A DNA stretch of 64,000 bases from Eledone cirrhosa (lineage: Eukaryota): contig OZ024749.1 in NCBI GenBank assembly GCA_964016885.1, positions 33,604,001 to 33,668,000 on the forward strand. The letters run 5' to 3'. This document shows positions 3,179 through 57,880 of the stretch, piece by piece. The position numbers were made by a program, and so were the translations under genes. The stretch's first letter is position 1; each line of letters opens with the position of its first letter. The notes below the pieces were generated by a model. It did no database searches. It was not told where the DNA came from and saw only the letters and a program-made list of their open reading frames with translations.

Positions 3179-3520
3179 AGTGACGAAACATAAGTCAATT
3201 GCATGAACTCATAATCATTTATTTACTGCTATATATATATATTTCGATGATAGCCATTGTATGGCTATGACCTCATCAGGCAGTTAGTCAGTTCTTAGAT
3301 ATGCCATTTTACCTGGTATATCTAAGAACTGATTAACTGCCTAATGAGGTCATAGCCATCCAATGGCTATCATCGAAATATATATAGCAGTAAATAAATG
3401 ATTATGAGTTCATGCAATTGACTTGTTTCGTCACTATTATAACTCCGGAACTTATATCTTCGTTGAGTGCTCCCTATCCGCATACTGAAGTACTGGATTT
3501 TACCAACACTTTCTTGCTTA
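3177..3520 (+). mobile_element. PLE pLTR remnant: ~125-bp inverted repeat carrying an HHR in each arm (3225-3284 minus, CTGATGA; 3336-3391 plus, CTAATGA)
   Basis: ACTGC-CT(G/A)ATGA-GGTCATAGCCAT..ATGGCTATCATC-GAAA-TATATA-TA-GCAGT; ends in (TA)n. Confidence 0.8.
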
Positions 3521-3548
3521 TATATATATATATATATGTATATATATA

Positions 3549-3745
3549 GTTTTAATATAGATGAGATTCTACAGGACTAGAACTGTTTCATTCTTTAGGA
3601 ATTCTACACGACTAGAACTGTTGCGTCGTCAGCGCGTTCGGGGCGCCGTTGTCGTTCGCGCGCATCTATATTAAAACTTTTATACTCTGCAATGTATTGA
3701 GTACCTTACTGTGGTTACCTCCGATTCAACCCGGAATAACGTACT
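3549..3745 (+). mobile_element. PLE pLTR remnant, same family as 25400-25600 and 50563-50655
   Basis: Shared TTCTACAGGACTAGAA and CTATATTAAA..TTTATACTCTG segments; (TA)n flanks. Confidence 0.65.
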
Positions 3746-4919
3746 ATATATATATATATATATATATATATATATATACACACCAACTTTTTATATATTC
3801 AAAGCGATTGAGAAAGCTCAATCTTATGCGAAAAATTAGAATGTGTTTTTTTTATCGCACTGGGTTAAGATGCTACATATGTTTTGAAACTCTACGTGTG
3901 TACAGCTTCAGGCTTTACAGTATAAAGAACAAACGGCGCTATATGACGGGAAAACGTGTTAATAAATGAGATTCAAGTGGAAAGTATGGTATTGCCAGAT
4001 ACTATAAAACGGGTTTGTGGATTCATTTAGAAAGAGTGATGGTTGTTATCGATAATCTATACCTGAGTCTCCGTGTAAAATTATCATTTTAAGTCACGTT
4101 GATTCTTTGTGAATGCTGGTCTATATAGGAGCGTGAATCAGTGTCAAGGGATGGAGCAATTTTGGTGCGGCGTTTGAATTTATGACTATATATATATATA
4201 TATATATATATATTATAGATGCATATATATTCGTATATACATCCTCATAGATATAGATATATATGCGTAGACACATACCTACACACATACGTAGATACAG
4301 TGACACATGCACTTAAATACACACACACCTACACAGTGACACATGCACTTAAACACATACACACGGACACGGTGACACACACACACACACACATACATAC
4401 ATACATACATACATACATACATACATACATACATACATACATACATACATACATACATACATACATACATGAGAGAGAGAGTCGCTGTTCTCCCATTGAA
4501 GATAAAAGAAACCACAAACCCTCACACGAAGAAGAGGTCAACAACAAAACAAAAAACACGAAGAAATAAAAGAAGAAAAACAAACAAAAAGGATGGAAAA
4601 GCCAAAGGAATCAAAGCAAGTCCCTCTGCCTCCCCCTAAAAATGCCAATCCTCAACTATGGATCCTATCTATTGATAAACGTATTGGTAAATCTATTAAG
4701 ATATTTATCCATGATACATCGCTTCTTTGACAAACCAACCTATTTACAATAAATACGATATGGCAATAGATCGATTCAGAGTAATTGAATGTAAGCTAAG
4801 ATGGATGTAGAAAATGTAATCGAGAAATGGGGAGGGTTCACTGTTAAGTGGCAACGGTGAATCAGTGGGATTAAATATCAGAAGATCATGACATATACAC
4901 TAAATACACTCACACACAG

Positions 4920-5680
4920 CTATATATATATATATATATATATATATATATATATATATATATATAGATACATATATAGACACATATATATATATATATA
5001 TATATATATATATATATATATATATATATATATATATATATATATAGACACATATATATATATATATATATAGACATATATATATATATATATATATATA
5101 TAGACACATATATATATATATATATATATATATAGACACATATATATATATATATATATATATATATATAGACACACATATATATATATATATATAGACA
5201 CACATATATATATATATATATATATATAGACACATATATATATATATATATATATATATAGACACATATATATATATATATATATATATATATATAGACA
5301 CATATATATATATATAGACATATATATATATATATATATATATATATATATATATATATAGACATATATATATATATATATATATATATAGACATATATA
5401 TATATATATATATAGACACACATATATATATATATATATATATATATATATATATATATAGACACACACATATATATATATATATATATATATATATATA
5501 GGCACACACATATATATATATATATATATATATAGGCACACACATACATATATATATATATATATATATATAGGCACACATATATATATATATATATATA
5601 TATATAGGCACACATATATATATATATATATATATATATAGACACATACATATATATATATATATATATATATATATATA
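4920..5680. repeat. (TA)n array punctuated by GACAC/GGCAC units
   Basis: Direct reading. Confidence 0.95.
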
Positions 5681-5784
5681 AAATAAATGAGTACTCTTCA
5701 CAATATTACACCAGGATTGACCATACGGAATGACCAGTTCTATCCAGTGGTGAACCAACAAACCTAATGATATATATATATATA

Positions 5785-54371: not shown

Positions 54372-54543
54372 TTTAGAGGTAGAACGCCATGCTTTGCAGC
54401 ATAGAGTTACGGCCCTTTACGGTCTGAGTTCAAATCCCGCCGAGGTTAACTTTGCCTTTCATTCTTACCAGGTCGATAAAATAAAGTACCAGTAATACAC
54501 TGGAATAATTGCTGGCCTTGTGCCAGAAGTAGAAACAATTATT
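54372..54543 (+). mobile_element. SINE copy (5'-truncated)
   Basis: Consensus match. Confidence 0.88.
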
Positions 54544-54906
54544 TTAAAAGCTTTGCCTGTATTCAAAATTCGTGCAAATCAGTATCATTAACTATATTTC
54601 AAAAATAACACTTTATCTGTTTTATGAAACATTGTCAGTGTAATGAAAACTCTCCGAATGTGTTATAAACCTTTAATCTAAACCGTTAATCTTATTTATG
54701 ATTAAAGAGGACTGTATAATGTTCCAGATCATTAGTATTTAATGATTAATTGTTCTTTGTAGTAGGGAGCATTCTCAATAAAAGAATGTATCATCGTTGT
54801 GTTTGTAATTGGTTTTTATTGTGGATCGGCAAAATCGTTACGATAATGGATGACATGATTTGCGGTATTTTGTTAAGGTATAATACGATCTCAGTTCAAA
54901 TATCAC

Positions 54907-55320
54907 CAAGGTATTTATGCCTCCATGTTATAAGGTATTTATGCCTACATATTACAAGGTATTCATGCCTACATGTTACAAGGTATTCATGCCTACATGC
55001 TACAAGGTATTCATGCCTACATGTTACAAGGTATTCATGCCTACATGTTACAAGGTATTTATGCCTACATGTTACAAGGTATTCATGCCTACATGTTATA
55101 AGGTATTTATGTCTACATGTTACAAGGTATTCATTCCTACATGTTGTAAGGTATTCATGCCTACATGTTAGAAGGTATTTATTCCAACACGGTACAAGGT
55201 ATTTATGCCTCCATGTTATAAGGTATTTATGCCTACACGTTATAAGGTATTTCTGTCTACATGTTATAAGGTATTTATTCCAACATGGTACTACATACTT
55301 ATGTATACATGTTACGTGGA
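54907..55320. repeat. ~17 x 24-bp minisatellite AAGGTATT(C/T)ATGCCTACATGTTA(C/T)
   Basis: Direct reading. Confidence 0.92.
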
Positions 55321-56409
55321 TGTTTGTCGGTGTTTCGTATTAACTAATCTTCACTTATGGTTTCTTTCACATCTATATTTCCATCCAACGCCGTCTATAT
55401 AAGTTTCTAACTATTCATAACAAGATACTTAATTCTGTGAGTGTAGTTTGGTGCCAGATAAGAAATATTCATACATAATCATTGAGAAGTCTTTAATAAA
55501 TAGTTACAATTTTATTATGCAATCGAAATAGCCAATCAGATGAAAGCTATGCACATTCTGACACAACGCTACAGTCAATATTATATAATACAAATATATT
55601 AAGTAAGAGAAGAGAAAATATAACCAGAAAAAGTAGGAATGTTTGGATACAAATGTTTGTATTCAAGATAAACTATTACAGAAGCTCTAACCCATTCATG
55701 GGCTCGGCGAACAGTATGGCAAAATGGTGACTACGTTATGCCAGACTGGAGAATAGAGAGCGAAATGAATTGTAAGAATAAGGTCAAGTCTCGCGGGATT
55801 CGTTCTGGTGAGCAAGCAACTCCTTCACGGTGGCAGTGAGTAGATAAGTGGTATAGGGAGTTATTACACCGGATATTCCAGACCTGTCAACTCACCCCGT
55901 CCGATGGAGAGATCTCTCACTCAGTTTGGCGTAGATGAGAGATGTGTTCTCTTGTGAAAATGGGTATAGCTTTCATTATGCAAAATCTTTCCATTTTGGC
56001 TCATTTCTTCCCATTTTGGGGCACTTTTTTAACGGTACTTCCCGTTTGGGTTTCTAGAGGCTGGTAGGTCTGATATTCCCAACGTTATTGCTTCGATATG
56101 CTATGCTCTATAGATCTATTTTTAGGTAAAACGTTTTGTTATTTGTTATCTACAGTCAAGAATTGATGAGAAAAGTTGTTACACAGAGTAAAAAAACTTT
56201 CTCATCAGTTTCCTCCCGGCGATAATGTTATGAATAGTATCAAATATGTATACATATATATATATATATATATATATATATATATATGTGTGTGTGTATG
56301 CATTTGTATATACACACACACACACACACTCACACTCACACACACGCACACACACACACACACACACACACACACATATATATATATATATATATATATA
56401 TATATATAT

Positions 56410-57700
56410 ATATATTGGTAAGAGGAGAAGAAAATGCTGCCAAATTGTTTCCAGTGAAAAATAGTTATAGTATTGGTTAGTATTCAGTTTTGGTTTTAAG
56501 TTTTAACGGTTGCGCATTTCTAATGCTTTTCAAAAATAATTTTGAGATAGAGCGCCCGTGATGTTTGCTCTAATCTGATTAGTTTTGGAAATTCTACCTG
56601 TTTTATGTAAAAAAAAGTGGCTCTAGATGTATGAAAAAATTCTTGTGGTCAAAACAATTTTGATTAGTCGGTAGAGGTCATGTGAATGTTAAAAATTGAT
56701 TTTGCGCCAAATGTAGGTTTGTCTCGGCTGATTGAGTAGTCATTGAAAAATAAGTCTTTCAAGACAAATGTGTGTGTGTGTAGTAGTAGTAGTAGTAAAG
56801 AGGTTCGTTGTTGTGATAATGGTCAGCAGGGATGTGAGTGCGAACCGCAACCTGCTGACAGTTCAAATGCTTATTAAGACAAGTGTGTGTGTGTGTGTGT
56901 GTGTGTGTAGCAGAGTAATTCGTGGTAGAGGGATCGGTCAGTAGGAATGTGGGGGATATTTTAACATGTTAAAAGATATTTTTCAGCTCTTGTCTTATAC
57001 GGAGAAGTGTGTGTGTGTGTATATGTCTCTTTGTGTGTTAATGTACGCGTGTGTATGTGTGTGTGTATATATGTGTATGTGTGTGTGTGTGAGAATGTGT
57101 GTGTGTGTGTGGGTGGACCAGTATTTTTGTGATACTGGTAAAAATGGTGTACATTATTCGATTTTTTCAGTAAAAACGATTCTCTCAATAGAACATCAAA
57201 AACCTTAATAATAAAAGGTGTGAAATGATATATAGTATTGGCATAATACCAAGGTGTGTGTGAGCGTCCAGATTGTACGTACTGCAAGGGGAATCCATTA
57301 GGCCCTGCCGTATTGGAATACTTGTGTACAAATATGTATCTGCCCATCAGTGTGCAATGCATGTGTGCAATGCATGTGTGCAATGCATGTGTGCGTTTAT
57401 GTATGTGTGTGTGTCGGCACGTTTATATTTATAGACATCAAAAGGTATGCAAATTTGTGTATATTTGTGTTGCACCATAGAACATGTGTGTTTACGTATG
57501 ACATTGTGTTTATATGTGGATAGAGATGTATGTAGGATGTATGCTGATGTAGGTATGTATGTTGACGTGTGTATGTTGTGGGTTCGTCTTAGGGAGAAGT
57601 GTTTAGATGGGGTCCGTATTTGTTAATAAAGTGAGATTCCTTGCTGATGCGCTGGGAACTATTTGTCAGCATTTTCTTCTCCTTTTGCCAATATATCACA
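56410..57700 (-). mobile_element. Degenerate PLE with inverted terminal piece and partial-tandem endonuclease ends
   Basis: 56415-56457 is the reverse complement of ~57650-57695; minus peptides KESHFINKYGPHLN (~57600-57645) and TPFIIK..LLRES (~57170-57220). Confidence 0.5.
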
Positions 57701-57880
57701 ACCCGTGTGTTACACCTCTATTCTTTTAAATATATATATATATATATATATATATATATATATATATATATATATATATATAGTGGTGGAAGACTGGAAG
57801 GTAATATCCGTAGTGGTAGAGCACTCAGTCCATAGAACGAGTTAAGTAGAAGTGGTTACACAACAGTCAGTTCACCATAT

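Follow-up and report, generated by a model that had tools for sequence, protein, structure and literature searches.

A stretch of 64,000 nucleotides of the Eledone cirrhosa genome (assembly GCA_964016885.1, contig OZ024749.1, positions 33,604,001 to 33,668,000; here, the window) is rich in microsatellites and crowded with short Penelope-like insertions in (TA)n runs. We found that Penelope-like elements (PLEs) of the Hydra clade carry a small bulged hairpin with a covarying stem twice, as H1 and then H2, in the leader upstream of their open reading frame (ORF). Their genomic copies end at one of two positions, each at a TA/AT about 6 nt (5 to 10 nt) upstream of one of these hairpins, and their inverted insertions pair one short arm with one tailed arm. 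It is likely, at a probability of roughly 0.6, that each hairpin binds the element's reverse transcriptase (RT)-endonuclease protein and sets a start site of target-primed reverse transcription, which would explain why the head-to-head insertions are lopsided. The question addressed is how PLEs choose their start sites and how the inverted partner and the one-sided tail arise.

A bulged hairpin shared by diverged families

An earlier note on the window had proposed a conserved RCTC..GAGY hairpin downstream of the hammerhead ribozyme, and all 11 of the sites that it named are present in the window sequence at its coordinates and on its strands. As a bare pattern, RCTC..GAGY is barely above chance in the window (38 occurrences versus 29.4 ± 4.9, maximum 42, in 100 Markov shuffles). 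Besides the window, we used a held-out sample of the 3.0-Gb genome consisting of 139 stretches of 10 kb (1.39 Mb; 40 adjoining the window and 99 scattered elsewhere). Across 790 kb of held-out DNA, the bare pattern lay within 120 nt downstream of 15 of 85 hammerheads, compared with 8 in the upstream control and 6 further down. This count is low because half of the copies stop before the motif, which is absent from non-Hydra families.

The true motif is a bulged stem-loop with an outer arm RYTC, a family-specific inner stem, a loop that varies from about 3 to more than 50 nt, a 2-nt TN bulge on the 3' side, and an outer arm GARY that is usually followed by RCT. This form occurred 35 times in the window versus 18.7 ± 4.4 (maximum 29) in 100 shuffles. 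Its descriptor matched the 1.39 Mb of held-out genome 289 times versus 182 to 213 in five shuffles, and when the trailing trinucleotide was required, the counts were 107 versus 8 to 11. Thus, the enrichment over shuffled sequence fails for the bare pattern and holds for the bulged one. The 259 bulged matches near a microsatellite end fell into 22 multi-copy and 67 single clusters, with many of the single ones due to chance. We excluded two clusters as probable chance members: MF1 lies straight after a hammerhead and shows no short ends, and MF8 runs antisense to a Neptune-type ORF. The palindromic-looking GAGYRCTC was rejected as a duplex site, since several families lack that sequence.

The hairpin is also found in other organisms. 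A profile made from 41 of the 120 homologues listed gave 77 marine metagenome loci, which left 43 distinct flanks once 4 spurious hammerhead cores, flanks shorter than 100 nt, and near-duplicates were removed. Paired RYTC/GARY arms lay 10 to 65 nt after the cut site in 34 of these 43 hammerhead-anchored flanks versus 9.3 (maximum 17) after shuffling, with a hammerhead-to-hairpin spacing of 15 to 56 nt, mostly 36 to 56 nt, and most of the 9 flanks without the motif end in (TA)n before its position. The reverse-complement control (28 of 43) is uninformative, as the outer arms read identically on both strands. In 21 of the 34 flanks, H2 follows 22 to 70 nt after H1 and is itself followed by the start codon. 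By eye, the full motif is present in three of six published Hydra consensi, two of which (coral Hydra-2_Amil and sea cucumber Hydra-2_Ajap) end with H1, while the third (sea cucumber Hydra-1_Ajap) starts with H1, H2, and ATG. The copepod consensus Hydra-1_Crog has variants of both hairpins, including a GCCC/GGGC swap (by eye), and one of the six consensi covers neither hairpin position. Three 9-mers spanning the bulge and 3' arm occurred six times in the supplement of PMC8557442, four times in Hydra hairpins and twice in Naiad or Chlamys internal sequence. This 9-mer search is the sole cross-species negative control; no non-Hydra relatives were found in the viral contigs.

Compensatory change had previously been placed in the outer pair, and the loops had been described as unrelated in sequence. 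The outer stem does swap among ACTC/GAGT, GCTC/GAGC, and GTTC/GAAC in E. cirrhosa, but most of the covariation is in the inner stem; the first 3 to 4 bases of the supposed loop pair with the bases before the 2-nt bulge. Among 39 distinct metagenome hairpins, the outer arms do not vary, and every first inner pair is Watson-Crick (25 C-G, 13 T-A, and 1 G-C). For inner pairs 1 to 3, Watson-Crick pairing filled 91 of 117 cells versus 40.7 ± 4.7 with shuffled partners in the metagenome set and 46 of 60 cells versus 25.6 ± 3.2 in 20 multi-copy E. cirrhosa families, whose hairpins were taken without an inner-stem requirement. These shuffles ignore relatedness, a caveat that is tempered because the ORFs of eight linked families are only 27 to 50% identical in amino acids over their first 115 residues. 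The 2-nt bulge register gave the first inner pair in 29 of 34 metagenome flanks versus 6, 6, 3, and 14 for registers 0, 1, 3, and 4. By these shuffle-based counts, covariation is present in both sets, chiefly in the inner stem. RNAalifold on a MAFFT alignment of 21 hairpins returned no structure, a result that speaks neither for nor against the fold; differences in loop length had misaligned the 5' arms. Rfam gave no match at gathering score (SECIS included) in seven loci carrying H1 and H2 and none on the hairpin sites among the best 150 of 529 rows of the window scan, which consisted of microsatellite-driven microRNA matches and one tRNA.

Families are named here by window position, and their features in the window are as follows.

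809 to 1135 (+): C-terminal GIY-YIG endonuclease fragment of a Hydra-clade PLE, outside the sites named earlier; longer copies of the family have H1 and a variant H2
1634 to 1795 (+): type I hammerhead (core 1638 to 1644, GAAA 1730 to 1733) and short 3' end at (TA)n, same element as the 809 to 1135 endonuclease
3180 to 3518 (both strands): inverted insertion, short arm on the minus strand (hammerhead 3279 to 3241, end 3180), tailed arm on the plus strand (degenerate hammerhead, H1, tail)
3442 to 3468 (+): H1 bulged hairpin; family without ORF link here
3684 to 3702 (+): H1 in the tailed arm of the inverted unit 3549 to 3744; family has a Hydra ORF link and no clear H2
6363 to 6396 (+): H1 in the tailed arm of a long inverted unit whose short arm ends near 5790; family without ORF link here
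23398 to 23421 (+): H1, from the most abundant family, with a mutation in one inner pair of the window copy; full-length copies continue into H2 and a Hydra ORF
25448 to 25466 (-): additional H1 of the 3684 family, in the tailed arm of an inverted unit
33423 to 33442 (+): H1; full-length copies of the family have H2 and a Hydra ORF
34060 to 34083 (+): additional H1, with the compensatory outer pair GTTC with GAAC
36260 to 36285 (+): additional hairpin of a 604-bp non-autonomous family; an exception, short ends not seen
41806 to 41827 (-): H1 that follows a 22-bp array private to the window copy; H2 and a Hydra ORF in the family
41820 to 42151 (-): array of 15 units of 22 bp, each combining start site 1 with the 5' arm of H1, in the window copy only
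46897 to 46923 (+): H1 (hammerhead core 46797 to 46828); family has H2 and a Hydra ORF
49529 to 49549 (+): H1 whose outer stem includes a U-G wobble (hammerhead core 49441 to 49478); family without ORF link here
50071 to 50116 (-): H1 with a long loop, in the tailed arm of an inverted unit; the 50070 family has H2 and a Hydra ORF
50442 to 50460 (+): H1 of the 33423 family (hammerhead core 50336 to 50378)
57823 to 57842 (-): H1 with a 1-nt bulge (hammerhead core 57914 to 57892); 57821 family, with a Hydra ORF link in one copy and H2 unclear
58705 to 58728 (-): additional H1 of the 23398 family, a tail-only piece with (TA)n directly upstream

The Hydra clade comprises PLEs with a C-terminal endonuclease, RWK in place of GxKF/Y, DKT in place of DKG, a CxCX5C linker, and no CCHH (PMC8557442). 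Seven of the 10 named families (3684, 23398, 33423/50442, 41806, 46897, 50070, and 57821) are tied to Hydra-clade ORFs, while no ORF link was found for families 3442, 6363, and 49529 in the loci examined. RWK is present in the 809 family and RWR or RWI in the other eight linked families, and DKG is replaced by DKT in eight linked families and by DNT in the sole full-length 809-family copy. The CxCX5C linker precedes the C-terminal GIY-YIG domain in the five of six aligned endonucleases that cover the region and in a 777-amino-acid ORF, four of these coming from hairpin-linked families. In the endonuclease alignment there is no CCHH; one Cys lies in the GIY-YIG core, and two invariant pairs, C104/C107 as CxxC and C132/H134 as CxH, flank the conserved E and N, as in the Hydra clade. 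The profile of 41 homologues matches the 809 endonuclease and not the window ORF 10414-12337. The hairpin families insert into (TA)n and have canonical hammerheads, with core variants in the 23398, 50070, and 6363 families. Together, the ORF motifs support the assignment of the hairpin-bearing families to the Hydra clade. The estimate of about 10 families thus holds (33423 and 50442 are one family), but these are related members of one clade rather than unrelated, and with ORFs as divergent as theirs, they do not collapse into a single family.

These data bear on the simplest alternative, that the hairpins are chance matches or one family counted repeatedly. The bare pattern is indeed not enriched in the window, and clusters such as MF1 and MF8 were probably chance. 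Nevertheless, the excess over shuffles in the held-out genome and in other organisms, the covariation, and the ORF divergence already refute this alternative.

Two hairpins and two element ends

Full-length units read hammerhead, TA, H1, TA, H2, and ATG. In five families, RCTC after the tail end was found in 326, 324, 424, 260, and 73 genome matches, compared with 0, 0, 0, 30, and 3 for the controls. A complete H2 was present in 12 of 12, 10 of 12, 5 of 6, 3 of 4, and 4 of 5 of the loci read, and these loci continue into the Hydra ORF or a deleted derivative. In the 41806 family, H2 is intact in one and mutated in two of the three copies that continue. Tandems of 3.5 kb exist in the genome. 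H1 comes first in the optional tail that PMC8557442 describes for PLEs, and the hairpin appears at 3' ends only as part of that tail. The idea of a structured 3' cis-signal of a PLE clade stands in that the signal is structured, shared by one clade (Hydra), and probably tied to the start of target-primed reverse transcription, but its place is in the leader 5' of the ORF.

The spacing of about 30 to 60 nt from the ribozyme also held, at 27 to 60 nt from the cut site in E. cirrhosa, except that hairpins 3684 and 23398 lie in 5'-truncated arms with no whole hammerhead on the same strand. The larger spacing at 41806 is due, as described before, to the intervening 22-bp array, with 15 units in the window copy. 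Other tailed copies of that family (30 loci; one without an anchor match) have one unit only, and we rejected the array as a general sign of telomerase-like reiterative synthesis because it is confined to a single copy.

Hammerhead families with the motif have two 3' lengths, while several without it have one. Short copies end about 5 to 10 nt before H1 and tailed copies 5 to 10 nt before H2. Over 32 families, we counted 218 tailed, 190 short, and 64 other ends; short copies, ending just before H1, occur in 24 of the 32. The junction is always within TA/AT microhomology, and its modal interval covers -6 at H1 in 14 of 18 measurable families and at H2 in 7 of 10 reference copies (eight families). 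In the largest family, all 18 measured short ends lie at -8 to -6, and other nearby TA dinucleotides are unused. Where a family has both ends, the tail (hairpin start to (TA)n) is 52 to 134 nt. The 809 family, which has only a short end in the window, has tailed copies elsewhere in which H1 lies 7 nt further on, as predicted. At a few copies (window 58705-58728 on the minus strand and loci L108 and L210), a (TA)n run lies directly upstream of the hairpin, as if the start site were an insertion or expansion target.

Inverted pairs were defined as arms of the same family with no microsatellite between them and were found in 18 of the 25 families queried. Among the 90 classifiable pairs, 87 consist of one short and one tailed arm, 2 of two tailed arms, and 1 of two short arms; a further 4 have one unclassified arm. 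Copies with no inverted partner in view number 114 short and 67 tailed. An arm that carries the ORF end can close either way: of 30 loci, 20 have a short end there and 9 a tailed one.

One short and one tailed arm would also be expected if reverse transcription had a single start before H2 and the cDNA folded back and was copied, with H1 in the cDNA stopping the second strand to give the short arm. Palindromic junctions are common, and self-priming has been proposed for head-to-head PLE inversions (PMC3846280). However, this requires two separate mechanisms for one motif acting at one spacing, and the short copies without a partner and the ORF-bearing arms that close either short or tailed weigh against it. 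We regard fold-back as improbable.

A third alternative is that the hairpins serve translation, packaging, or hammerhead activation (protein-assisted folding) and that the ends merely follow nearby TA microhomology. The hairpins do sit between the hammerhead and ATG; the Poseidon hammerhead is protein-assisted (PMC11167929); and one family has H1 without short ends (36260) and another tailed ends without H2 (3684). Against this are the unused TA dinucleotides and the uniform short ends of the largest family, the fact that both ends track a hairpin across families with such divergent proteins, and the spacing, which varies widely from hairpin to hammerhead but not from hairpin to end. We consider a pure leader role very unlikely. 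The more specific suggestion that the hairpin is a tertiary partner of the hammerhead finds no support, given the variable spacing, the presence of two copies, and the ending of about half of hammerhead copies before H1.

How the hairpins might set the ends

In the reading that we favor, the Hydra protein, probably a dimer, would cut both strands of the (TA)n target. The hairpin, as its RNA binding site, would bring the UA that precedes it into the active site of the RT for priming by a nicked (TA)n end. One DNA end would prime at the UA before H1, giving the short arm, and the other at the UA before H2, giving the tailed arm, which would contain H1 and never H2; the two 5'-truncated cDNAs would then be joined head to head. 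Since nearly all genomic copies stop short of H2, we infer that the template is either a transcript that reads through tandem copies or a monomer that the hammerhead has cut and that has been circularised, so that the 5' leader comes after the 3' end. The fuller version of this reading, programmed twin priming, in which the duplicated bulged hairpin, conserved across phyla, loads two RTs at two fixed starts of one circular or tandem RNA, is more tentative, and we put it at slightly less than an even chance. If true, twin priming builds each insertion from both ends of the cut (TA)n target and explains the PLE tail and the inverted repeat in one step. The RT of PLEs is the closest relative of telomerase RT, and the hairpin would be the first cis-acting RNA element shown to position the RT in telomerase's sister group.

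Several observations weigh against this reading. The binding of the protein to the hairpin and the start-site role are likely but predicted from sequence. Predicted folding energies at the window sites are no better than weak, from -2 to -14 kcal/mol; of 13 sites, about half have a minimum-energy structure other than the bulged fold, and at 4 the antisense strand folds equally well or better. The case for the fold therefore rests on covariation. For H2, inner-stem pairing beyond the invariant first pair (27 of 42 versus 20.8 ± 2.1, maximum 28, in shuffles) is not clearly above chance. H2 is a variant in the 809 family (first pair mismatched or bulged), is unclear in the 57821 family (one copy), and is not recognisable in 12 matches of the 3684 family, which has a Hydra ORF and normal tailed ends. 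The 36260 family has an intact H1, yet short ends numbered 0 in 30 loci and 0 in 3 held-out copies. The spacing is no strict ruler: positions -10 to -8 account for half of the short ends in one family and for most of the tailed ends in the 41806 family. The octopus consensus Hydra-1_Obim has no clear motif by eye. Finally, two ends do not need the hairpin: copies in the non-Hydra clade of ORF 10414-12337 also end at two positions, spaced by about 60 nt, and that clade lacks the RYTC motif; another signal may set its ends.

Which nucleic acid the motif acts in is a separate question. Non-canonical inner pairs in the 20 E. cirrhosa families are G-U 10 times and A-C once on the sense strand, an excess that favors sense RNA as the functional strand. 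In metagenome hairpins, the two are even (5 to 5), which counts against the RNA reading and leaves the strand argument resting on one genome. In an alternative reading, the motif acts in DNA: cDNA synthesis would run past H1 and H2, and the motif, as a DNA hairpin that is extruded or single-stranded, would direct the GIY-YIG endonuclease to trim the intermediate at the TA that lies about 6 nt upstream of either one, a form of endonuclease-mediated resolution. This predicts identical end geometry. PMC8557442 attributes the tail to endonuclease resolution, the D. virilis tail is required for endonuclease recognition as cited in PMC11167929, and the few copies with (TA)n right before H1 or H2 (window 58728, L108, and L210) look like a DNA target; the even metagenome counts also suit it. 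On the other side, the E. cirrhosa G-U excess points to RNA, the variable loop excludes a duplex site of fixed spacing, and both ends are RT starts in the sole PLE tested in vitro (PMC11167929). Trimming in DNA is thus unlikely, albeit the strongest competitor to start-site selection in RNA.

Relation to known elements, and other observations

The in vitro work concerns the Poseidon element PAc (Frangieh et al. 2024, PMC11167929). Its enzyme acts on uncleaved RNA, initiates reverse transcription at two internal positions that delimit the tail, and cuts and extends both strands of the DNA; it is predicted to be a dimer. PAc resembles the elements here in having two tail-bounding positions downstream of the hammerhead, which are RT starts mapped in vitro in PAc and genomic ends here. 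The PAc starts lie inside the ORF, at an AC-rich stem-loop and without target homology, whereas the Hydra ends lie in the 5' leader, at a TA matching the (TA)n target, upstream of two conserved, covarying hairpin copies. A duplicated signal for PAc is not described in the available text of PMC11167929, and a search of its supplement gave no matches.

With the Hydra clade as described by Craig et al. (2021, PMC8557442), the window elements share the protein motifs, (TA)n targets, canonical hammerheads near the 3' end, the inverted 5'-truncated partner copy, and the one-ended tail. The tail in that account is 30 to 40 bp and due to endonuclease resolution, in contrast to 52 to 134 nt here. The hairpins go unremarked there: 'hairpin' has no match in the main text and supplement of PMC8557442 and 'stem-loop' none in the supplement. 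The window hammerheads are of the minimal type I kind found in PLE pseudo-LTRs and non-LTR retrozymes (PMC4209133; bioRxiv 10.64898/2026.07.22.740005); in the available parts of both sources, 'hairpin' does not occur and no downstream hairpin is described. The PLE hammerheads, inverted partners, and one-sided tails were already known, and the hairpin pair and its fixed relation to both ends are undescribed. As the earlier note also supposed, no earlier description of the hairpin is known; the literature searched holds none, with subscription papers, Repbase notes, and bioRxiv supplements lying beyond that search.

Two other systems offer analogies. Twin priming in L1 gives inversions from two target ends, with the second priming at random internal sites, whereas both primings would be programmed in the model proposed for Hydra. 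The template-boundary hairpins of telomerase RNA and the epsilon element of hepadnaviruses are bulged stem-loops to which the RT binds and which determine where copying begins or ends. These are analogies, and we claim no homology. What is shared by E. cirrhosa, coral, sea cucumber, and many marine metagenome contigs is a motif of 20 to 25 nt at a set distance from both ends. It is a minimal RNA with sharp predictions for in vitro and structural work. At the nucleotide level it also marks Hydra elements and the non-autonomous elements derived from them, and it fixes their true ends for annotation.

Some derivatives depart from the full-length layout. Mini tandems at L280/L281 (257-bp units) and L297-L300 (195-bp units) have lost the region from the ORF start to the hammerhead; in tandems of 195 to 257 bp the leader is retained, including H1 and the second start site, and these tandems resemble retrozymes. 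The 604-bp family (window 36140-36360, L316-L345) is a non-coding tandem family with a degenerate second hairpin after its end and no clear hammerhead, and several related families are alike. A third, imperfect hairpin-like element lies between H1 and H2 in the 46897-family tail at L387-L391. Upstream of H1 in the 23398 family (L287/L278), a young family as well as the most abundant one, the hammerhead has good stems I to III and a long stem II loop, with a non-canonical 5' core in both full-length copies read.

Other PLEs share the region. Window 10390-12846 (ORF 10414-12337, plus strand) holds a broken non-Hydra PLE with a CxxxxCxxC linker, a CCHH-type endonuclease, and an inverted partner. 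At L023 4250-4440 (plus strand), a non-Hydra copy runs past its second end into the bulged hairpin of another family 8 to 9 nt later and ends 80 nt on, which may be a nested insertion or use of the motif outside Hydra. Hammerhead families without the motif lie at window 10079, 31586, 52959 (minus strand), and 32045 and at L065-L066, including a 310-bp tandem hammerhead array adjoining the window. Beyond PLEs, the window contains a tRNA match above the Rfam gathering score at 61320-61390 (minus strand) and tandem SINE-like repeats of about 194 to 224 bp at 27260-27819, 29508-30101, and 59738-60368.

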